Positions 6,358 to 43,375 of a stretch of 64,000 nucleotides of DNA are shown in pieces. The position numbers and the translations under genes are program-made. Below the pieces are notes generated by a model that saw only the letters and a program-made list of their open reading frames with translations, searched no databases and was not told where the DNA came from. This DNA is from a virus, in IMG/VR virus record IMGVR_UViG_3300023208_000003, positions 64,001 to 128,000 of that record; one strand, written 5' to 3'. How positions within the stretch are numbered: the stretch's first letter is position 1; each line of letters starts with the position of its first letter.

Positions 6358-9300
6358 TTAAGTTATCGTTACTGTAATAGCTCTTGGTGCTGGTAGTTCA
6401 ATTAAAAATGCTTTATCCGTCAAAATAATTACCGTATAATCAGCAATGTCACCTAGCCAAATTGGATAATCAGTTAAAATTGCGTTCGTGTATGCGTCTT
6501 TTACTACAATTGTCGGTGTATTTGGTATATTATGATCCACTTTTACACGCATTATTTCTTTAGTTGGATTTTGATCAGGTGTATGATAACTCGGTAAATT
6601 TAAACAACTAAAAGTTTCATGTGCTTCTAAGTGAACCTCGACTTCAAAAGTGCCATTTAACAGCTTCATGTAAAATACGGCGCTGTCTACGATTCTACTT
6701 GTAGAAGATTCCTCTACTCCACCAATGTGAGCTGGAGTATTTAAAGGGTCATCAGAGATTGAAGTTAAATTCGCAAGTCCGTAATACGCCTGATCATCAT
6801 AACCACCAACAAAAAGAGAATTTGGGTCATCACCTGCGTGTGGTGGAACGGTTGTTGGATGTGGTGCTGCGTCATATGGCGCAACATCATACCCAACCGG
6901 CAGAATAAACGTAAATGGAACTCCAGGTACTACTTCATCATAAACCTTAACACGAATATCATCTTTCCACATTGGCATTATGCCACTGTCGATCTTAAAA
7001 TCATACTTTTCTGTTATTGCAACACTAGCGGTATCATAAAATCTATTTACTTCTGAAAAGCTAATAAAATCAGTAAATTTTATTCTTGGATGTTCAGTGA
7101 AAGTATCGCGTTGATCAACTTGGAATGAAAAATTTGTTCCAACGGGAACATAATTATCAACAAATGAAGTATCTAAATCAATGAATTGAATATCGTTGTT
7201 TGTAGTAGGGTCTGTTAGATAATGAATTGTGCCAAGACTTTCAAATGTTTTTCCGTCCTTCGTTTTATTTGAAAGATAAACATTCTGCTGGCGACTTTCA
7301 GTCGGAAAATATTTATTTCCGACCATATGAATAGGAACCCAGCTACTTTCAGATTCATTCGTAATTGCGTATTGATCACCATCACGCAATCCCTTAATCG
7401 TTACGTATTTTGTACTTGCTGTTTCTGTAACAAAAAAGTTTGTGTAAGTATGTCCATTGATAAAAACACCTGCTTCAACTACTGTTTTTGGAATAACAAC
7501 ATTTATAGTTGATGCGTGCGCAACGCCAGCTGGCAAATTGTACTCAACAAAACCGACTATTGAATAACGATCTCCAGGATTCAACGGTTCAGAAGTAAAT
7601 TGAAAATTAGTAAAAGTAAAATTACTATTAAATTCACCATTTACAAAAAATTGAATTTCTTTATACATACCTGGTATTCGCATGGTGATTGGACCACCTT
7701 TTGAAATACCATGCGCAAATGTTTTAGGAGTTGTTCCTAATTCTTCATGATTTTTAGCTGAATTTTGAATCCAAAATCTAAACGTGTCGCTTTCCGCACC
7801 ATCAATAATGATAGCTGAGTTTAAAGCTGGGCGTTCTTTAAATATTATTAAATCATGACCATACCAAAGATCAAAATCGTGTGCCTTTACGTTAAAGTCA
7901 AAACTATAATAAAGTGGAAAATCACCAGTTATTTTAAAGAAAACTTTTCCGGCGCCTCGATAATCTGTTCCAATCTTTAAAAGATCAGTGTAATCAAACC
8001 CTGGCACTGCTCCAGTTCCCGTTCCAGCAACTGAACGGTTTACGGAAAATACTTGATCAGCTTCATTAATCAGTTGAAGCGAATATTTTTCAGTTACTGA
8101 ATCAAGACGCGGTTTATGTGTAAACTCAATTGCGCGAGCACCATCTAGAATAACTGATGACGGCGTTTTTACTTCTGCTGTTGTAGTTTTATTATTTTCA
8201 ACGTGTTCAATTTGATAAAATGGTTCAGGAATAGTAAAGCCAATTTTACCGTTATAATAGCGTTTTCCAACAATTGCGGGGTCTTGCCAGCCAGAAACTG
8301 TTCCATAAACAAGATATGATGGTTTATCAGCAAATACCTCAAATTTAAAAACATCACCAGCTATAATGTCAAGACTTGCTGCATAAATTGTGAAACTTAG
8401 TAAATCAGAAAAATAAGTTTCTCCAACAGTAGCCAAACCTTGATCACCACTTACAGAACCAATTACCGTAAAAGTAGTACCATTAATTGCAGTAAGGGTC
8501 CATACCTGTGCAGGGCAGTTCCAGAATGTAGAAGCGTATAGTGAAATATAAGGGTTATTGATGGAGTGGACTTCAATAGGTGGTAACTCATTGGCGTCTA
8601 AACTATAATTTGTTATGTTAAATGAAATTTTATCGCCTTCCACAAAATGAGTTGGCGAAGTTCCTACAGTTGTTCCCCAAGATGAAAATGCAGAATACGG
8701 CGGAGTGTGGGCCGTTGGAATATCCTCATGTAGAATTGGAACAATTGTAAATCTTACTTTTCCATTATCGTATGGAATATCAACTGTTGCATCAGCAAAT
8801 GTTTCTATTAAAACAGTTTTTGAATTATCAGTGTATTGTTTAACTGAAAATGTTGTTGCTGTTTTCGCGTCAAGTTCCCAGAAGCTTGTTTCAACTAAGT
8901 CAGTAATTGTCCAAACTTGAAGCTCTGTTGGGTTATAAATTGCAGGTGTTTGAAAACCAAAATGTTCAGCATAACCGCTGTTAAATGTTGCATTACTAAC
9001 TTCAAGCTTTCTACCATTTTTAATGTAAGGAGTTGGATTATTCAGCGTAAATGAAAATTTTGACCCAATTGGAAATGCTGTAGGACCTGGCTGAATTGTA
9101 AAGCTAATAACTCCATTATCATAAGGTACCCCTAGAGTTGCTTGCGCAAAAGTTCTAGTTACCTGACCAAACGCTAAGTCTGCTTTTTCAATAACGTCAA
9201 ATTTTGTTGTTAAAAGTGGATCACGTGAAATTTCCCAATATCTTGTTGGAGCTCCTTGATCAACAATAGTTAAATTTAGCGAACTAAGATCATAATTTTG

Positions 9301-11478: not shown

Positions 11479-14400
11479 TGAATGGAATTACCTGCGGTGG
11501 CGAAATTGTTCTAACTGAGTGAACTGCTAATCTTGATGTTTTAAATAAATCAGTAAATTCAAAGTTATTAGCTAACGCGTCATTTAAAACTTCAAAGAAT
11601 AATGTGTTTATTTGACGTGGAGAAGCTAATCTCCAAATAGTATCAAGTGTCCTTCTTGTTGCAAAGGGAGTTGCAAACCAAAGATCCGCCTCAATAAAAT
11701 TCAAAGCTTCGATGTAATCTGGAATATTTATTCCTCCAATATTTTTTACTAATTTAGTGTTCAGGATAGCATCTCTCAAAGTCGCTAACACTAAATGTGT
11801 ATCAACCATTATTTGATCTTTTCCAAAACCATAACGTGTACGTGTATTGTGACGAGCATCATAATCAATTCTATTTTGAGATGGAAGTTGATCGCCTCGA
11901 GAATTTTGACCACATGCTGTGTCAGATAATTTATCCCAAAGTTGTTTTGGTATTTTATGTTTTTGATCTGGTCTAATCTGTGTCCATTCCGTGTGAGTAT
12001 TCTTAAGATCAAGCTCTTTAGGATCATCTCGTAAAGTAAAATCTTCAGTAAATCTTAATTTATATGAATCATCACTTGTAACAAATAAGTTCAAACCATG
12101 AACGCTTATCGCGTCGTAGCGCGCTGGTTTAGTCAAAGTGGCAGGTAACAAATTATGAAATGTTAGGTATGTACTTGGACCATTTCTTAGTTGAATTTCA
12201 GCTTGCTGGGCTGACATTAAATTATTTGTAGCAGCAAATGTTTTATTTCGTACCCAGAAAAAATAATTATTACCAATAATCGTTCCTTCAGAATCACGTT
12301 GAGGCACAATAACATATTGATAATCATTTTTAAATTGAGTTTGTATCGTTAAATCATCTTTGCTTTCTGGGTCAAATGTCAACTCAATAGCATTTGGTTC
12401 ATACTTTCGATACAAAACAACTACCTGTTGACCAGCTGGTATTTTATTTGTTAAATAAACAATATTTCCATTAACAGTAAAAATACTATTAAGCTGCAAA
12501 ATTCCATTTATGTAAACAGAAATTCGCTTCGAGTTCAATGTCTCGTCAAACGTGAATGTCAACTTATCATTATTTCCAGTTTTCTTTTGTAATAAATCAG
12601 TGAGAATAGCCCAAGAGGTCCATGATGACTTTATTCTGTTTACAATTTCACCGCTATTAAGAACCAAAGGAGTCTTATTTTCAGCAACGGCTTCTGCTAC
12701 AAGATCAGCAGTTGTTGCAACTTGAATCCAATCACCATAAAATGGTTGCCACGTATTGATAGGCGCATTCAAATCAGCCGAAAGTTGTTTTTGTGTAGGA
12801 ATTACCTGTGCTATCCACTGTGTTTGCGAAATTAAAGGATCATTTACAAGTTCTAATGAAGCAAATGGAAGATGAGTTGTTATTGAAATTTGCTCACGAA
12901 CTTTTACATTATGTCCAAGAGCAATTGCTTGCGCTATTTCAAGCGAATCAATATTATTAACTGCAGGAGTTAAAATTACTGCAATTCCAAGATTTGTAAA
13001 ATCATACTTGATAGGAGCTCCTATTTGTCCAAAGAAATCTTCAATATCAAGACGCTGAGACAAAGTATTTGAAATAGCAATAACTCCAACTGTTCCATCA
13101 AAAATATCAAGCTTAAATGAAATTTCGCCAATAGCATTTCCAATCGAAGACACTTTGGCAGACGGTACAAAGGCAATAGAACTAAATTCAGCAGGTAAAT
13201 CGACTAATCCTGGAAGCAACAATTCAAAACTTGAACCAATATCATAATTTAAAATTCCAGTTATCGTAGCTTCACCGACCGGTTTATCTTCATCCCATCC
13301 CCAAATTTTGACATTTGCATTTAATCCATGATCGCTAAATCTTCCATCATCAAGAGTTACATGTAAATCACTGATAAACAAGCGTGTAGAAGCACCAAGA
13401 AATTGAGTTACATTGCCTTCTGGAGGTGGGTTTGGAGTTCTTGACCAAGCAACTGGACGTTTCCACCAAATTCTATTACGAGAATAAGTTTCTTGACGAG
13501 CAACAGTTCCAGATTTTTTAAGACCACTTTCTATTTCTAATTTTCCTTCTTGTTCTTTTGCTTGCTTGTTATAAGTAAGAGGAGGAACATCTGATTGTAC
13601 CCACTCATAGACCTTTATGTCAGAATAATCCGCTAATGATCCCCAACGTGATAAACGCTCCTCAATGGTTGAAAAGATTGAAGTATCGTAATATGGAACG
13701 TAATCAAGCGTTTCAGTATCCCACCAGACTCTACCAACTTCACGTTCCCCCCAGGTAGAAACGGTAGAATAATTAGGATTATCAGTAATAAGCGTAGAGC
13801 AATTGTAACGCGCTAAGTCAGTAGGCGAAATAATATTCACTGATTCAAGTGGTAACGGATTATGAGAATCAAATGCTGGATGCCAAACACTAATATCTTC
13901 TATAAGCGTTTGGCTCTTATAATTAAATAATTTAATTGGTGAAAATTTTGGTTTAGCTGGAATAAAACCAACTAATTCAACAGTTCCAGCTGTTAAAACG
14001 CGAATAGTATCAGAATTCACCTTTTCAACATCAACTCTAAATGAAAATAATTGTCCATTCGTGAATGGATTTAAGCCAGCTTCAATTAAGAATCCAATTT
14101 TACCATTATCATAATAAGTTCCAACAGTTCCATAATCTGCTTGAGTTAAAGTATCTCCAATTACGCTAAACTGAGTAGCTGATAACATCGTGATTTGCCA
14201 ATTTTCGGCTGTTGCGTAGGGTCCATGAACTTTTATATCAGTAAGATTTCCATAACCTGTAACTTCCAGAGATGTTTTAACATTAGTTTCAAATACAAAA
14301 AAATCCTCGGCTACAAAAGCGATTTCACCGTTTATTAAGTCAAATTTAAATAAACCATTATCATACCTACCAAATCCAATATTTGTATCAATCACACCAG

Positions 14401-17400
14401 AAATTTCGCCTTCGAGTGTAAATGAATGTGGAGAGTTGGCACGCAATTTCCAAGTTTGAAATGGAATGCTATCTGAAATTGTTACGTTTGTTAATCTTCC
14501 GCTACCAAAACCAACCAACATTGGCTGCACAATTGTAGAAGTAAAAGCATCGCTTTTAAATGAAATAGGTAAAATAACATCAAGCTCTGTTCTAATTGTT
14601 TCAAATTCAAAAATATCAATTGAATCAAAATCCTGTGTTCCACTTTTAATTGATACAGTAAAATACCCGGGTAAAATAAGTGGTTCATCAACTTGTCCAG
14701 TTCCTATTAAGGTCGTTCCTTCATAAACATTGTAATGGTTAAAATCAATCGCTGTATCAAACTTGACTGAAAATATTGCTGCTTTCGTTATTTCATAAAA
14801 GTCATAAACATCAAAAATACCATTTCCAATTGTTGATCTGCTTATCAATTTCCACGTTGGTAGCACATTAAACATTGCCGTTCCAGCAAGTTCAGCTTCA
14901 AATGAAACATTAGCATTTAAATCGTCAATTAAAAACCAACGACTATCATCTAATGAGTCAATTCGCGTAAATGATGGATCAAACAATAATTTGTTTTGCT
15001 CATCTTCTGAAAAGAATTGAAAGCGACTCGTTTGAAGAGAGCAATCACTTTCAAAAAGTTTCATTTCTGGATATGCTTTTTGGCGCGCATCGCCGTATTC
15101 AGCTACTTTGTAAACCCAAAATTCATCAAGTTCGGCAGTATCAAACTTACTATTATTCGTAAATGCATTTATTGCAAAATTTGAGCCTTTAGCGCCTATT
15201 AAACCACGCCAAAATTGAAACTGTGTTGATTTACTTATGTCTAATTGGTCAAAATATTCTTTTTCATGATATCCAAATAATGACATTGCGTGCTGCGTAG
15301 TGTCATTATTTTGATAAACAAAATCAGAATCAAAATACTTAGCTACATTATCAACGCTTGCTTCAAGATTACGCTTTACTGAGTGACCTTGAAGATAAAA
15401 GCCGCCCATAGTTGGGCGTCGAGTTGATTTAACTTGACGTAATGTTTTAATTAAAAGCTTACTAATAATTAAACCTAAAAATGGATCATAAATTAAATTT
15501 ACCTTTTCAGCTGGAAGAGCGTAATTTTCAAACAGTACAATATGTTCATATTCATCGATGTGAATATGAGCTGAAAAAATTGGAATTTTTGATGAAACCA
15601 TTGTAATATCATCTTCACGAATCACTGTTAAAGCAGTCTTATCAAGCGCCTGACCTAACATGTCAAATACTAATTGACCACCACTAACGTCAGCAAATTT
15701 TGTAGAGTCAAAAGTTGAAACTAACCCCGTTTGTGTTTCAAACCAAAATGCTTTTGGAAATGGATTTAACACGTGACCTTGCCCAACATTTATCCCAGAG
15801 TATACAAAATCAATTAGCTTTTCTATTTCAAGTTGCCAATTTAAATTTCTACCTGTTAGATCGTCAATTTGAGAAACATCAGATTGATCAAAGCGCCAGC
15901 CGTCTTCCTCCAAGCGTTTAACATAGCCAAACATAATGTTTACTAAATTCTGAATACCCGTAACCACAAAAGGTGTAGACTGAGTTATTCTTGTTTCACC
16001 GTCAAGGTAGTGATTCCAATAAATGTCAGTATGACGTTTACTTAATGCGTGAAATGTTTGAAAATTTCCTGTAGCATTAAGATCAATGTACTCGATCACA
16101 GGATAATTCGGATTAAAAGTTTCAATTCGAAATTTCCAATCACTTCCATCAGTTGCAGGAATATACAGACCCTGTTCATTTAAAGCATAAGTGCCAATTT
16201 GAACAACCTGAATGCGAAATGCGTGTAACCATGATTCACGAACTATAGGATTCTGTTTAAATATTACAGAGCGAGCATTTGTTGTTACTTCATAAACGTC
16301 AGAACGAATTTCTAAATTATCCGTTTCAATCATTCCATCGCAACGATAACCAAGCTTTACGTCCCAATTTCTAAATGCAATTGACGCATAATTATTTCCA
16401 TTAACATCAAGAGAGTTATATCGTAAGAGATTCGTAAATGACTGGTTTAAACCATTAAAACGATACGCTGTAAATGGTATAAACTTAAACTCAAATCCAT
16501 CAAAAACAATTTGATCATTTAAAACAAACGGAATTCCAAGATCATCAACTTGTAGTTGACCATATGTGCCAATTGTTAAATCTTGACCTTCCACAACATA
16601 AAATTCACTATTTTCAATGCTTAATTTAAGTACAGTTACATTATTACCAACTTCACAAACTTTTAATGTAAACGGTAATGCAATATCAGTTATAACATTA
16701 TCTGAAATGTTTCTAAGTGGAGAAACGTAAGATTCTCCATGAAGCTTAAAATCGATATGTGATAATTTTTTTCCAAGATAACGATCAAATTCCCAACCAT
16801 TTACATCAAAAACAGTATTACCCCAAGTTTTTGCAAGGAACTCAAGAGGCGATAATTTAAAACCAATTCTTGTGATAGCGTGTTGAAATTCAATTGACTT
16901 TACCCAAAGTAATTCAGTTGGACCATAATCACCAATCACGTATGAATTTGCAATACCAGTTGGTATTGCATTCAATAAAGCGTCGCCGGAGTTCCATGCC
17001 GGAGGTGCAACATACGGCGGTAAAAGCTCATCAGTATGCACGTTTGTGCATACTTTAACAGTTGGATTTTGGGTTTTGATATAAACCCACATAGAGTCTT
17101 TCCACATTCTTACTTGCTCATAAATCATAGGATCAAGCATCGTAGTTGGATTAGACGTTAATTTCCAAACTGACCCATTCCAAGGTAACTCAGGACCATC
17201 GACAGTAACGTTGAACCCTGTTACTACTTGAGAAATGGTGTTAGCATCGTCCGCGCGCACGAGTGTTGCGGACGTTCCATTTATGGCGTGTACACGATAA
17301 ATGCCATTTTGATGTAAATCACTTTGCCCAACAAATAAGAGACGTTGATTTACTGACAAGGAATAACCATTTACCGTAGAATCAAAGCCATCAGTTATGT

Positions 17401-38356: not shown

Positions 38357-38378
38357 TTGCATTAAAATAGGGTGATTT

Positions 38379-39038
38379 ATGTCTGCTGAAGCTCCATTAC
38401 TTGGTTACGGTGCGCGCTACGCCGTAATGATAAAAAATCCGTATGAAAAAAACCCGGAACAGTTTTTATCCAAAATCTTCAAGCAGCTTGAAGTAAACGT
38501 TACTGCTGCACTTCAAGATTATCCTATCTATTCAATCAGTTTCAATGTTGAAACTGCCGGCAAATTCGTTTCATTAATAATTTTCTTTGACGATGCAGCT
38601 TTTACTATTGATATTGAAAAGCTGCACGCAACTATTTTAGATAACCTCAAAGCTTTAAATTTAAAAGTAGCAAATTCTGATAAATACTACGGAATGACGA
38701 ACTTGTATTTGCCTACAAGCATTTCAATATTTGTTTCAGATAAGATCTTTGAAACTGATAATGGAATAGTGCTGGTTTCTGGCAGGTCCCTTAGTGGAGT
38801 TCATAAACAGCTGATAAATGTCAATTGTATTATCTTACAAGACACAATCAAATCAAACATTTTAGGATTGCTTTTGATTGATAATTTAGTAGAACTTAAC
38901 TTTACAAGTAAAGAAGTTCGAGAAAGCAATCGTACTTGGACAGAGCCTTACAAGCTGGCTAGATTGGAAAAAATGGATTTGCTCGAGTTTAAAGCGATGC
39001 TCATTGAAAATGGATTATCACAATACGCGAAACTATGA
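38379..39038 (+). CDS. 'YAKL' family member without the MK..LLE leader
   Basis: Starts MSAEAPLLG, C-terminus LLEFKAMLIENGLSQYAKL. Confidence 0.8.
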   Translation: MSAEAPLLGYGARYAVMIKNPYEKNPEQFLSKIFKQLEVNVTAALQDYPIYSISFNVETAGKFVSLIIFFDDAAFTIDIEKLHATILDNLKALNLKVANSDKYYGMTNLYLPTSISIFVSDKIFETDNGIVLVSGRSLSGVHKQLINVNCIILQDTIKSNILGLLLIDNLVELNFTSKEVRESNRTWTEPYKLARLEKMDLLEFKAMLIENGLSQYAKL

Positions 39039-39697
39039 AAGTACAAACATTATTAAAAGAAAACACTAATTTTGAAGGGTTTAAATACAGCTTCAGAGTG
39101 TCTGAAGAATGGCCTAGTCAGCCCCAAGATAAAGAAAAAAATATCAGTAACAGTGTTAATAGCGTAATTAAAGAACTTTATTCATTGTCGTTTTCAATAA
39201 AAGAAATTCTTTTTAATTTTGATGGAACCGAGAGAAAATTCAAAATTGAGTTTAAAGATGTTTCAGAAGTTGTTAACTTAGGTCATTTTCACGATGAAAT
39301 CAAAAAAATACTTAAGAACAATAATTTAATATTTACCATGAGTGATGAATATATTGCTAATATGACAATGATGTTTCCAGGCAAAATCGGTGTTCGTATT
39401 AGCGCATTTCAGAGAAATAACGGGTGGGCTACAGTCGTCGTATACGGTAATTCATTAAAAGATGTTCATAAAAGAATTCTTAATGCTGAAGAGCTCGTTA
39501 TTCAAAATGAAATTAACTCAAGTGTCTTAGGACTTATCTTAATGTCTGGAACGTCTATACGTTTTAGATCAAATCAAATCATTGAAGATAATCCTTGGCT
39601 TGATTTATATGTTGAAGCAATGGAGCAAAAAATGGACGTGCTTGAGTTCAAAGCGATGCTCATTGAAAATGGAATGTCACATCTGGCAAAATTATGA
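39035..39697 (+). CDS. 'YAKL' family member
   Basis: MKVQTLLKE leader, C-terminus VLEFKAMLIENGMSHLAKL. Confidence 0.8.
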   Translation: MKVQTLLKENTNFEGFKYSFRVSEEWPSQPQDKEKNISNSVNSVIKELYSLSFSIKEILFNFDGTERKFKIEFKDVSEVVNLGHFHDEIKKILKNNNLIFTMSDEYIANMTMMFPGKIGVRISAFQRNNGWATVVVYGNSLKDVHKRILNAEELVIQNEINSSVLGLILMSGTSIRFRSNQIIEDNPWLDLYVEAMEQKMDVLEFKAMLIENGMSHLAKL

Positions 39698-40359
39698 AAG
39701 TTCAAACATTACTAGAAAGTGAAGAAAGTTTACTAACCACTCCAGGCTACGCGTATGTCACATACATCTGTTCTAGTGAGTACCCAAAGGGGCTAAAAGA
39801 AATTATTGAAGAGCTCAAACATAAGATACCTTGTACAAAATTTGTAGAAAATAAAGATAGCTACATTAATGCAGAAGAAGGTGTTGAAACGTGTAAGCTT
39901 ATCTTTCACTTTGCTTCAGGTAATGTTAGTATCAAACAACTACAAACTGACATTCGAAAGATTGTTTTCAATAAATTTGATTGGAATTTCATTAGAGGGT
40001 TTGGTAGAATTGGACTTTCTTATATTAATTTTCCAACTAGTGTAGTTGTAAATTCCGATTACATTGAAATTGATGACAATGAAAACATTGATTATGCAAC
40101 TTCTTCAACTACTCTCAAAAATATTCACAAGTCAATAAAAGGAGAAATCACGTTTCTAGAACTTCATAGAGAGATTGAAGACTCAGTTTTAGGCTTATGT
40201 CTTTTAGAACACCGTGACTTTAAAATTATGTCATCAAGTTCAAAAGTAGCCGGCACAAACGTATCTTGGGTTAAGCTTTACAGAGAACATAAAGATGATC
40301 TTCTAGAGTTTAAAACTGCTCTCATTGAAGCTGGACTTCCACATCTCGCAAAAATTTAA
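39694..40359 (+). CDS. 'YAKL' family member
   Basis: MKVQTLLE leader, C-terminus LLEFKTALIEAGLPHLAKI. Confidence 0.8.
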   Translation: MKVQTLLESEESLLTTPGYAYVTYICSSEYPKGLKEIIEELKHKIPCTKFVENKDSYINAEEGVETCKLIFHFASGNVSIKQLQTDIRKIVFNKFDWNFIRGFGRIGLSYINFPTSVVVNSDYIEIDDNENIDYATSSTTLKNIHKSIKGEITFLELHREIEDSVLGLCLLEHRDFKIMSSSSKVAGTNVSWVKLYREHKDDLLEFKTALIEAGLPHLAKI

Positions 40360-40388
40360 TTGTACCTTTTTTACGCTTATGTTATAAT
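40360..40388 (+). promoter_or_regulatory. Sigma70-type promoter
   Basis: TTGTAC-N17-TATAAT with a TGn extended -10. Confidence 0.7.
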
Positions 40389-40394
40389 AGTAAT

Positions 40395-40985
40395 ATGAGC
40401 GTAAAACTTAAGTTAACATTTTCAGCAAATGTAGATTTTTACCCATCATATACGGTAAAAATCGCGGCGGCGCTTCTTAAAGAGTTTAATGTTTCGCCTG
40501 ATCTTTGGATTTATGGTAACGCAAATTTAAATCTTGACGTTACATTCACCGATGTGCAAACTGTTAACATCAGTGAGCTAATTCATAATTATAAAAGATG
40601 TATTTTAAAAGCATTAAATCCACCAGCATCATCTTATTTAGTCTTAACCGTGATCGCGCGTAGTATCGAACTTCATGTTCCTAGCGTTACAAAAATCATA
40701 ATGGATGATAAACTTTCTGCTGGGCACAATCTTTTAAAGCTGTTTGGCACTGACTTTCATAACCTTCAAAAGGTTGCCGATCTCAACTCAACGATAGTCG
40801 TTGACATCAAGGATCACGTTAAGGCTAACGTTCTATCAATGTGTCTTCTTTCAAATTGCATGTTTAAAGTTGAAAATATTGAAAATTTAAAATGGCTTAA
40901 TTTATTTTATGATACTGATAGAGATTTATTAGCATTTAAAGCTGCTTTAATTGAGAATGGATTTTCACAATTGGCAAAAATATGA
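40395..40985 (+). CDS. 'YAKL' family member without the MK..LLE leader
   Basis: Starts MSVKLKL, C-terminus DLLAFKAALIENGFSQLAKI. Confidence 0.8.
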   Translation: MSVKLKLTFSANVDFYPSYTVKIAAALLKEFNVSPDLWIYGNANLNLDVTFTDVQTVNISELIHNYKRCILKALNPPASSYLVLTVIARSIELHVPSVTKIIMDDKLSAGHNLLKLFGTDFHNLQKVADLNSTIVVDIKDHVKANVLSMCLLSNCMFKVENIENLKWLNLFYDTDRDLLAFKAALIENGFSQLAKI

Positions 40986-41048
40986 ATATTGCTAAAGATA
41001 GTATTTTTAAACTATAGAATTTGTTCCAAAGCAATACGCTAAATTTTA

Positions 41049-41078
41049 GTGTACTTCTTCTGATTTCCTTGTTATAAT
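41049..41078 (+). promoter_or_regulatory. Sigma70-type promoter
   Basis: GTGTAC-N18-TATAAT with TGn, upstream of 41114. Confidence 0.65.
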
Positions 41079-41113
41079 GTTATCTGATAATAACAGACAA
41101 GGAGAGCACTCTC

Positions 41114-41362
41114 GTGAATCTAAAGAAAGCAAAGGCTCTACGCCGAGCCGCAAAAAATATCATTACAGGTTTAACTCAGGCCGGTCAAACTATTGAGCCA
41201 ACTGGGTACGTTGAAATTGAAAAGAACCGTAAGACCATGATGGTTGATGGCGCGTTAATTCCAATTTCAGTAGGAACCATCTTAAACGCCAAGAATACCT
41301 TCCGCGGCATCTACCGTAACCTTAAGCGCTCTGCTCGTAACCAGCGCATATTAGGCCTATAG
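41114..41362 (+). CDS. Small basic hypothetical protein
   Basis: GTG start with a strong AAGGAG SD. Confidence 0.75.
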   Translation: MNLKKAKALRRAAKNIITGLTQAGQTIEPTGYVEIEKNRKTMMVDGALIPISVGTILNAKNTFRGIYRNLKRSARNQRILGL

Positions 41363-41375
41363 GGAGACTATAAAT

Positions 41376-41585
41376 ATGCTTATTTATGATAAGATAATGT
41401 CCCTCAAGTCAGGCGACATCTTTATCGTACACGTTGACACCTATGATTTACCAAAGCCAAAGGCTCGTCAGCTTTTGCGCAAGCACCTTGTTGTGCTACG
41501 GGAACTTATTCCCAATAAAAAAATTAGAATTTTAGTGTTTGCAAAAAAATCCGTTTCGTTTTCAGTTATTCGTTCAGAAGTTTAA
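41376..41585 (+). CDS. Small hypothetical protein
   Basis: ATG with a GGGAG SD. Confidence 0.7.
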   Translation: MLIYDKIMSLKSGDIFIVHVDTYDLPKPKARQLLRKHLVVLRELIPNKKIRILVFAKKSVSFSVIRSEV

Positions 41586-41604
41586 AAGTTTAAGCCGTTT
41601 ATTT

Positions 41605-42630
41605 GTTTTGATTCTGTTTTTATAGAGGTGCTTGTGGGTTCCGGGACTTTTGTTCGCACCTCTCAAATCAAAACCTTAAAAAGGACTGCACGGTTAGATC
41701 AACAGTACAAGAACTGCCGTCCCCAATGATCTCACACTGCAATTAAGTGCGCGCTGAAGAGCTGACTAAAAAGATATAATTCGTAGGTGTTGCGAGCCTA
41801 TAGTTAAGTTTCTCGTTATTTTGCTAGAGAAATTAATATCGCACCAGAATGGGTTTACCAACTGGTAAAGTGGGTCTTGACAATGTAGCCTTGCCGCGAG
41901 AGCTGCCTGTAGAGGTTTGGAGGGGCTAATTCTTACACGCTGAAAGAAGCGTAAGGAATTAATAACTTAAAAAGAAGACATTGGTGCCTGGACTTGCCCT
42001 TGAGAGCCAATAGCTTGGGGCGCCGCAAGGCGAGGCCTGATAGTATCAGGTTGAATGGCAGGATAGACTAGCGCTTCCGTAAAGCCGACACGAGAAAGAA
42101 AGGATTTCTTTCAAGCTCATAAACGACCATATCGCGACAACCGTAAGGACTTTTTAATAAGAGCTTTTACGGTTGTCGTTCTGAATTTAATTCAGTCCGC
42201 CAAATCGTTCTTAGTGTGGAACGTAAAACGACGGGGATAAGTATCGAATTAGTAGTCGTCCACAAAAACCAGTCGAGAGATTGGTGTAGGCTACCTGGCA
42301 TAGCAAGCCAGCTTAAATAAATTTTGGTCGATAAACGCTTACTATTGTCACTCGATTAATCACTGAGGTAATCAGCTTGATTGGGTTCTACTGAAAATCC
42401 TGTTAATGGGTTTGGGCCGTCTTTATCTAAAAGACTTACAATAATGTCCCTATAATCCAATAACTACATAAAGCTAATTAAAAAGCTTCAATGCAGTGAT
42501 AAACGGGAGAGCGGTAGAGAGGTAGAGATATGTCCCGAGGAAGGTTATAGCTATATTCCTCAATCAGTTTTTAACAAAATAGATAAATTATCAAAAGAGC
42601 TTTGTTTAAATTAACCATTTTATTGGTTAG
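41605..42630 (+). ncRNA. Candidate large structured non-coding RNA, family unassigned; strand and ends inferred
   Basis: No ORF of 60 aa or more on either strand. More than a dozen stems with G-U pairs and GNRA loops (CGCC-GCAA-GGCG, ACCAGTC-GAGA-GATTGGT) that read as GNRA on the plus strand. Confidence 0.6.
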
Positions 42631-42671
42631 GCTTAAAAATTTGATATACTTCAAAAATCCTCAATCTTTCT

Positions 42672-42679
42672 GATAAATA
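42672..42679 (+). promoter_or_regulatory. T4-type late promoter (GATAAATA) inside an inverted repeat
   Basis: Motif match 28 nt upstream of 42707. Confidence 0.6.
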
Positions 42680-42706
42680 AGTCATCACCTTTATCAGATT
42701 GTCTTA

Positions 42707-43375
42707 ATGAAAACATTCAAGCGCTTTCTAACAGAAGCACCCAAAATTTATAATTCAGATCGTCATTATCCAAACGAGGATTCTGAAGATCTAATCATAA
42801 AAGGTAATATTGAAGATAGTCCTGTTATTGATTTTAGTGACTGGGTAGAGTACGATGAGCAGTATAGTCCAGGCTGTATTGTAGAAGGAAATGTTACTGT
42901 CAGTAAAATTGATTCATTTAAAACTTGTGTTGGCGCTCCAAGTAAAATTAAAAAAACTTTAACAATTCAATATTGCAAAAATTTTATTTCATTAAAAGGG
43001 TTACCTGAAAAGATCGGCGGAAATCTTTATGGATTAAACATTCGTGGTTGTACTGCGTTGACAACTTTAGAGTATTGTCCAAAACAACTTGGCGCTTATT
43101 TTAACCTTGACGGTTGTACGAGTTTAATTAGCTTGAAGTATATGCCGAAGAAAATGGATGGAGATCTGTTTTTAACGGATTGCAAAAATTTAAAAAACAT
43201 TCTTCACGTTTTTCTAACCATTGGTATTGATGAAATTCATTACGATGCTAATCAATCTAATCTAGAACAAGCGCTTTATATTATTTGTGATCATTACTTT
43301 AAAAAAGATAGGGATTTACTTGAGTGCAAAGCTGAATTGATAGAAAGAGGATTATCAGAATATGCAAAGCTTTAA
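42707..43375 (+). CDS. 'YAKL' family member, LRR-like
   Basis: MKTFKRFLTE leader, 22-aa C-x-x-L-x-(S/T)-L-x-x-x-P repeats, C-terminus DLLECKAELIERGLSEYAKL. Confidence 0.85.
   Translation: MKTFKRFLTEAPKIYNSDRHYPNEDSEDLIIKGNIEDSPVIDFSDWVEYDEQYSPGCIVEGNVTVSKIDSFKTCVGAPSKIKKTLTIQYCKNFISLKGLPEKIGGNLYGLNIRGCTALTTLEYCPKQLGAYFNLDGCTSLISLKYMPKKMDGDLFLTDCKNLKNILHVFLTIGIDEIHYDANQSNLEQALYIICDHYFKKDRDLLECKAELIERGLSEYAKL

Follow-up and report, generated by a model that had tools for sequence, protein, structure and literature searches.

The largest gene-free gap of a lake-water T4-like phage contig is best read as a composite spacer with one small conserved non-coding element and probably not as one large structured RNA

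Introduction

Phages of the T4 type carry small and stable RNAs that derive from 3′-UTRs or are embedded in operons, such as T4 species 1 and 2 (rnaC and rnaD), both of which lie within the tRNA cluster. Among large RNAs, GOLLD is frequently found adjacent to tRNA genes in phage genomes. GOLLD and ROOL, the large ornate RNAs, are Rfam families whose structures have been solved by cryo-EM (bioRxiv 10.1101/2024.12.08.627333). The hyperplastic regions of T4-like phages hold yet other non-coding units, the PeSL promoter/stem-loop cassettes (Arbiol et al. 2010, PMC2839356; Comeau et al. 2014, PMC4122927), for which crossover inside a repeated promoter is the mechanism described (PMC2839356, PMC4122927).

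Here, we compare a non-coding locus of an uncultured phage with these systems. The window, a 64-kb stretch of a longer virus contig, contains a gap of about 1 kb that an earlier note had proposed, from its stems, as a large non-coding RNA recalling GOLLD and ROOL. Were the gap a structured RNA of 1 kb, this freshwater jumbo phage would carry a new molecule of the GOLLD/ROOL class, but comparison with relatives speaks against that. Because only the first ~137 bases of the gap are strongly conserved, one large new structured RNA is unlikely, and we favor a composite spacer in which a single small element is maintained.

Results

A gene-free gap in a T4-like contig

The source contig is a 197-kb IMG/VR virus record, estimated to be 55% complete, whose genes include those for a portal, major head protein, prohead protease and baseplate hub of the T4 type; its relatives are jumbo phages of 343–360 kb. 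Near-identical DNA is present in ten lake-water metagenome DNA runs. The contigs of four runs and four further assemblies, all essentially identical, show 0 differences across the gap, so that population variation offers nothing usable there.

The gap (41586–42706, 1121 nt) holds no ORF of at least 50 aa under table 11, table 4 or TAG=Q, shows chance read-throughs only and no hidden gene under TAA=Q, and is interrupted by 18–36 stops per frame in all six. No other ORF-free gap of the 197-kb contig is longer than 467 nt, and the description of the region in the earlier note as ORF-free and by far the largest non-coding gap therefore holds under four genetic codes. That it is less AT-rich than its flanks was also seen correctly: GC at 41600–42350 is 0.42–0.46, the paralog genes on either side have 0.29–0.35, and toward its 3′ end the gap turns AT-rich (GC 0.30 at 42424–42706). 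Its placement between two blocks of a paralog family stands with one amendment, as two small unrelated genes, p82 and p69, directly precede it.

Several candidate identities were tried and rejected. A gene hidden under another genetic code (table 4, TAG=Q, TAA=Q) was ruled out; for a pseudogene or decayed paralog, six-frame read-through translations of the gap gave no Pfam or PHROG match at E ≤ 1; for a paralog remnant, blastn and tblastx of the gap against the rest of the contig returned nothing. Nor did blastn find a match to the gap among 50,697 GenBank phages.

Searches for known RNAs were negative throughout. cmscan with Rfam 15 gave 0 matches at gathering score across the whole 64-kb window and no match at E ≤ 10 within 41586–42640; the families covered by these models include GOLLD, ROOL, OLE, HEARO, group I and II introns, RNase P and tmRNA, and none was found. 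ARAGORN and Rfam detected no tRNA or tmRNA gene in the 64-kb window. The earlier note could not match the region to a known class, suggested cmscan against Rfam as a check and named a confident Rfam hit as the result that would make the RNA a known one; the search returned no such hit in the gap, in agreement with that part of the note.

One close relative shares the gene order

A protein search with p82 led to one closer homologue, P0003, on a locus termed L130, the only close relative found. L130 lies on a 219.5-kb NCBI MAG contig (JAWBPO010000001.1) labelled Candidatus Nitrosotenuis; this is evidently a phage contig, and the label is probably a binning error. In the same order as here, it carries an early promoter, p82, p69, an ORF-free stretch of ~775–890 nt, a broken version of the paralog that comes next, and the genes for hub and portal. 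The L130 counterpart of the gap likewise has no Rfam match. The features upstream of the gap are:

41050–41078, + strand: early-type promoter TGTAC ... TGTTATAAT, conserved in L130 at 6512–6542
41114–41362, + strand: p82, a small basic protein, 78% aa identity to P0003
41376–41585, + strand: p69, a small ORF, 60.5% nucleotide identity to L130

p82 is a member of an unnamed family found widely in phages, for which a profile search retrieved 113 representative clusters (E ≤ 1e-3), and its homologues in this clade always lie between a PDDEXK_15 gene and the baseplate hub. Family members have a conserved N-terminal MNxKxAKxLRK and C-terminal RGIYRNxKR, and include 41114–41362 of the window, L002 1747–2070 and L133 6195–6455, with others in L137, L138, L140 and L141. 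For p69, the sole homologue is that of L130, with no other among 5.8 billion proteins.

Two side observations concern L130 itself. The counterpart of the gene at 42707 is broken there (7824–8213), with a stop after ~31 codons and a 91-aa C-terminal remnant called as a gene. Its portal gene (13127–16039) encodes 970 aa including an intein (PF14890), which is absent from the 549-aa portal here.

Transcription signals around the gap

K-mer enrichment in intergenic DNA yielded an early motif, TGTAC(T)TTTTT followed by TGnTATAAT; in the form TGTA[CA]-N17-21-TA[TC]AAT it has 19 sites in the contig, including 38328, 40361 and 41050, and none inside the gap. The promoter at 41050 is the nearest one upstream of the gap and likely the source of any + strand transcript entering it. 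Scans for sigma-70 promoters and terminators found no + strand site inside the gap, and no + strand intrinsic terminator was predicted in 40900–43000. Since these scans place no promoter or terminator in the gap, any + strand RNA there would most simply continue the p82–p69 early transcript. A T4-like late motif, ATAAATA(G), is 14–20-fold enriched in the intergenic DNA of the genome, and one copy precedes the next gene:

42673–42680, + strand: late-promoter motif GATAAATA, 27 nt before the next gene

A further perfect late-promoter octamer, TATAAATA, overlaps the p69 ATG at 41369–41376 and is conserved in L130; a late transcript from it would be without the p69 start codon and would enter the conserved element described below.

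Structure of the gap is at the genomic background

All 20 stem arms that had been listed by eye are present in the sequence, each at its exact position. The characterization of the region as densely structured, in contrast, did not hold, because both its inverted-repeat density and its folding z-score are at the background of ordinary coding windows of the same genome. Perfect local inverted repeats of at least 6 bp number 16 in the gap and 15.9 ± 5.1 in same-size windows elsewhere in the 64-kb window, 29 of the 54 background windows having 16 or more. Folded as a whole, the gap has an MFE z-score of −3.7 (+ strand) and −2.95 (− strand); its central 690 nt score −2.7. Fifteen random 690-nt control windows of the genome gave a mean of −1.27 (sd 1.22, minimum −3.4), with four at z ≤ −2.58; set against that minimum, we judged the gap values of −2.7 to −3.7 to be within the control range. 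The GNRA loops, G–U pairs and nested helices that had been taken to indicate RNA show no excess over background either, and GNRA/UNCG-closed hairpins are not enriched in the gap (2 distinct vs ~1 expected per kb, P ~0.04–0.1). Stem lists read by eye in AT-rich phage DNA thus call for caution, as they do not exceed the yield of coding sequence.

In a scan with 200-nt windows only 42000–42300 stands out (z −3.4 to −3.9, both strands), and it does so because of a single hairpin:

42134–42179, + strand: strong hairpin of 20 pairs that includes a perfect 12-bp core, mean pair probability 0.94

This hairpin is the only one clearly above chance, and L130 lacks it; exact searches for its 12-bp arms returned 0 matches in viral and prokaryote genome collections. 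A partly U-rich tract comes directly after the hairpin, but the terminator scan does not report the site. The hairpin might separate the early unit from the late genes, as a terminator or an insulator.

Conservation is graded along the gap

Comparison with L130 resolves the gap into segments of very different conservation:

41597–41733, provisionally on the + strand: ultra-conserved non-coding element of ~137 nt, ~92–94% identity to L130, with nested stems GTTTTGATT/AATCAAAAC and AGAGGTGC/GCACCTCT, a hairpin CCTT-AAA-AAGG and a 3′ hairpin
41734–41900, + strand: weakly conserved extension, with short blocks at ~41790–41802 and 41868–41898
41901–42423, no strand assigned: lineage-specific unconserved middle with most of the listed stems, unalignable to L130 7344–7646
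42424–42510, + strand: weakly alignable block, best local alignment to L130 7647–7735
42622–42706, + strand: conserved upstream region of the next gene, nhmmer match to L130 7744–7822

At the nucleotide level, identity to L130 is 84% for the promoter and leader, 71.5% for p82 and 60.5% for p69 (L130 6839–7048), after which it rises to 92% at 41601–41735, including a perfectly identical run of ~70 nt. Within the gap, nhmmer aligns only 41593–41896 and 42622–42703. The alignment of the extension (L130 7196–7343) has a low posterior probability, 0.1–0.77, and the score of the 42424–42510 block, z 4.5, is not above the best of 200 shuffles. Between them, ~41901–42423 and L130 7344–7646 differ in length and share nothing alignable (global z 1.6); a middle of ~520–690 nt is replaced in L130 by shorter, unrelated DNA. 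No Pfam or PHROG remnant was found in any frame of the middle, and no paralogous DNA or protein in the contig. Identity recovers to 77% over 42622–42952 (42624–42952 by blastn), and the last ~85 nt of the gap read, from their motif and alignment, as the conserved late-promoter region of the next gene.

The contrast is sharpest when all alignable DNA is taken together. Among 9590 windows of 120 nt (9.6 kb), mean identity to L130 is 76% and the best portal segment reaches 93%; the most conserved window of all is 41613–41732, at 94%. The element is thus more conserved than the portal gene, despite having the least conserved gene on one side and unalignable DNA on the other, and by this measure it appears to be under much stronger constraint than the neighboring genes. 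Its high identity could instead stem from a recent recombination patch, not from selection.

The gap is thus not one unit: constraint is strong over a short 5′ block, the middle is specific to the lineage, and a conserved promoter region closes it. Its likening to the GOLLD/ROOL type of large RNA is not supported, as the middle that holds most of the stems (~520–690 nt) has no counterpart in L130. The same comparison bears on another proposal, a lineage-specific long ncRNA of ~0.3–1 kb on the + strand that would join a conserved 5′ domain (41597–~41900) to a fast-evolving, structurally plastic 3′ domain. In its favor, both phages keep an ORF-free, GC-enriched (0.435 vs 0.34–0.39 in the flanks), negative-z stretch after the conserved block; the two unrelated middles each have a GC of 0.435, with MFE z-scores of −2.7 here and −3.8 in L130, and folding of the whole gap is slightly favored on the + strand (z −3.7 vs −2.95). 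Two differences from L130, one at 41874 and one at 41692 (the only position that differs in the 70-nt core), also fall in one predicted helix, a 4-bp long-range pairing that both keep, each by a one-sided change from wobble to Watson–Crick, which we take as a weak hint of an RNA helix. We nevertheless consider such an RNA unlikely: the middle is unalignable and of different length although neighboring genes are 60–80% identical, whereas known large ornate RNAs retain conserved cores; stem density, z-score and GNRA counts are those of the genome background; the gap has no promoter and no canonical + strand terminator was found; and the sequence has no Rfam match and is absent from the complete relatives. 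Somewhat less doubtful, and still tentative, is the wider reading in which 41597–~41900 would be the 5′ domain of a new phage ncRNA whose 3′ part (to ~42200–42600) keeps only composition and foldedness, or, in a weaker form, in which the 137-nt block alone would be a new small RNA or riboregulator of the p82–p69 early operon.

The conserved element

RNAalifold predicts for the element a three-way junction consisting of a long hairpin (the nested stems), the short CCUU/AAGG hairpin and the hairpin that follows, and the element's own MFE z-score is ~0. Covariation among homologues, whose lack the earlier note had named as counting against an RNA, did not appear: there are zero compensatory pairs, a comparison of low power between only two sequences with too few differing positions to test the fold. 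The element is single-copy in the 197-kb contig by nhmmer (~55% of the genome). A covariance model built from it matched only its two source sequences in 935 kb of relatives; exact scans gave 0 matches for a 19-mer in a viral contig collection and 0 for a 34-mer in a metagenome contig collection, and the element has no Rfam match.

A frame of 31–33 aa (41628/41634–41729, GTG start) is open in both phages, which raises the question of whether the block encodes a small protein. Its first 24 codons are identical save for one synonymous substitution (ACT → ACC), and a Shine–Dalgarno-like GAGG lies 5 nt upstream of the second GTG. Two 1-nt deletions in L130, however, alter the last third of the frame and shift it to an unrelated C-terminus; conservation extends ~30 nt upstream of the start and to nearly all third positions, in a neighborhood where genes are 60–72% identical; and the frame matches no Pfam or PHROG family. 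A coding role is therefore very unlikely in our estimation. Constraint at the nucleotide level is favored because conservation covers third positions and upstream bases and because the L130 deletions change the frame, and we regard the element as a concrete candidate small RNA or cis-regulator of the phage.

The locus in other relatives

A portal-based search retrieved two complete relatives, G001 (359,550 bp) and G002 (343,229 bp), with portals ~60% identical, as well as fragments. Against five relatives, including the two complete genomes, blastn of the gap gave chance matches only, and in G001 and G002 neither blastn, nhmmer nor the covariance model found it; the ORF-free gaps of more than 350 nt checked in these genomes, including all the largest, lie in tRNA arrays.

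The locus of the gap is a hyperplastic island. Among relatives, the interval from the PDDEXK_15 gene to the 74-aa/hub genes ranges from ~2 to 7.8 kb, and four paralog genes at 38357–41040, a 2.7-kb block, are absent from L130. Since L130 matches upstream of the 38328 promoter and downstream of the 41050 promoter, the crossover falls inside the repeated early promoter. Seen against L130 6504–6541, the paralog-block indel has its crossover within the repeated early promoter and a gene 3′ end.

Gene-free DNA of 0.8–0.9 kb follows the p82 homologue and a canonical terminator in two other lineages (L002/L131 and L133), whereas genes follow the homologue directly in three further lineages (L137, L138/L139 and L141). 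With ours, gene-free DNA of 0.8–1.1 kb after the p82 gene is thus seen in three lineages. These gaps (ours, L002/L131 and L133) show no detectable homology: neither local alignments nor counts of near matches exceed those of shuffled sequence, and the strongest case, with P ~0.007 from a restricted search, is uncorroborated. They more probably reflect recurrent turnover at a single junction than a conserved RNA gene.

The other gaps have features of their own. That of L002 (2071–2977) has a z-score of −6.75, a UUCG-loop terminator, several 10–13-bp hairpins and four CCGTTT repeats; L002 and L131 differ at 12 positions, all within 2237–2381. The L133 gap has a z-score of −0.8, an inverted repeat of 101 nt (6787–6887 / 7260–7360, 97% complementary, 372 nt apart) and a direct repeat of 99 nt (77%; 6606–6704 / 6899–6997), repeats that could be an invertible or mobile element.

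This setting makes it necessary to ask whether the 137-nt block is conserved as DNA, as a PeSL-like recombination anchor or a patch of recent gene conversion bordering a swapped cassette, with no RNA function. The block does lie exactly at the boundary between conserved genes and the replaced segment, promoter-bounded cassette indels occur 0.5 kb upstream, and L002 and L131 show mosaic divergence patches in their gap. We hold this to be distinctly unlikely, as the block lacks an early promoter and is single-copy in 197 kb, whereas PeSLs are repeated promoter/stem-loop units (PMC4122927), and a converted patch would more likely reach into p69, the least conserved gene here (60%).

A DNA-level site of another kind, a replication origin or protein-binding region, would suit non-coding DNA of this length that is AT-rich toward its 3′ end (GC 0.30 at 42424–42706) and has z-scores similar on both strands, and the CCGTTT at the start of the conserved block recurs four times early in the L002 gap. 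It is highly improbable, given that the gap has no iterons or tandem repeats and no promoter of the kind used by T4 origins, that its middle is not conserved and that nothing comparable exists in the complete relatives.

Discussion

We interpret the gap, with moderate confidence, as a composite hyperplastic-region spacer and not as one large RNA gene; the one small conserved non-coding element that it carries would most likely act in the early p82–p69 transcript. In this view, early transcripts started at 41050 would extend past p82 and p69 and include the conserved element, a 3′-UTR-borne module with a role at the RNA level, perhaps as a small RNA released by processing or as a structure that controls stability or translation. 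In the predicted fold its AGAGG pairs with CCUCU in the main hairpin, and the GCCGU/ACGGU/GCCGU segments could form alternative helices. The unconserved middle would be left-over or imported filler from cassette turnover, and the 20-pair hairpin may insulate the early unit from the downstream late genes.

Some observations fit the composite spacer less comfortably. Filler does not explain well why GC-rich (0.435), negative-z non-coding DNA occurs at one place in both phages despite unrelated sequence, and no recognizable gene remnant supports the idea that the middle is left over. The element itself is thermodynamically ordinary (z ~0) and shows no compensatory change, which also speaks against our reading. 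The locus nonetheless exemplifies promoter-bounded, PeSL-like cassette shuffling in an uncultured jumbo T4-like lineage and shows that long gene-free filler can persist in hyperplastic islands.

Set beside GOLLD and ROOL, the gap is alike in its phage and lake context, its size order (0.6–1 kb), its ORF-free sequence and a GC above that of the flanks. It is unlike them in having no Rfam match at E ≤ 10, no conserved multi-helix core and structure at background; unlike GOLLD, it has no tRNA gene in the 64-kb window around it. The 42134–42179 hairpin, for its part, differs from a canonical intrinsic terminator, its tract being only partly U-rich, whereas canonical ones follow the p82 homologues of L002 and L133.

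The locus also resembles the hyperplastic regions of T4-like phages. Here too a variable island lies between core genes (SbcCD/PDDEXK on one side, baseplate hub/portal on the other), a gene block has been gained or lost by crossover in repeated early promoters, and unrelated sequences are swapped between conserved regulatory boundaries. The 137-nt element departs from a PeSL in that it has stem-loops but no early promoter; it is single-copy in 197 kb (~55% of the genome), yet it sits at the boundary of a replaced segment, and nearby early promoters bound the 2.7-kb indel. Gene-free filler of 0.5–0.9 kb is not described for PeSL cassettes.

The element may be compared, finally, with T4 species 1 and 2. 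It has no sequence or Rfam similarity to them and lies outside any tRNA cluster. It may share with them the character of a highly conserved, structured non-coding segment of ~140 nt that directly follows small early genes and lacks a promoter; a processing product of a longer transcript would resemble the 137-nt element.
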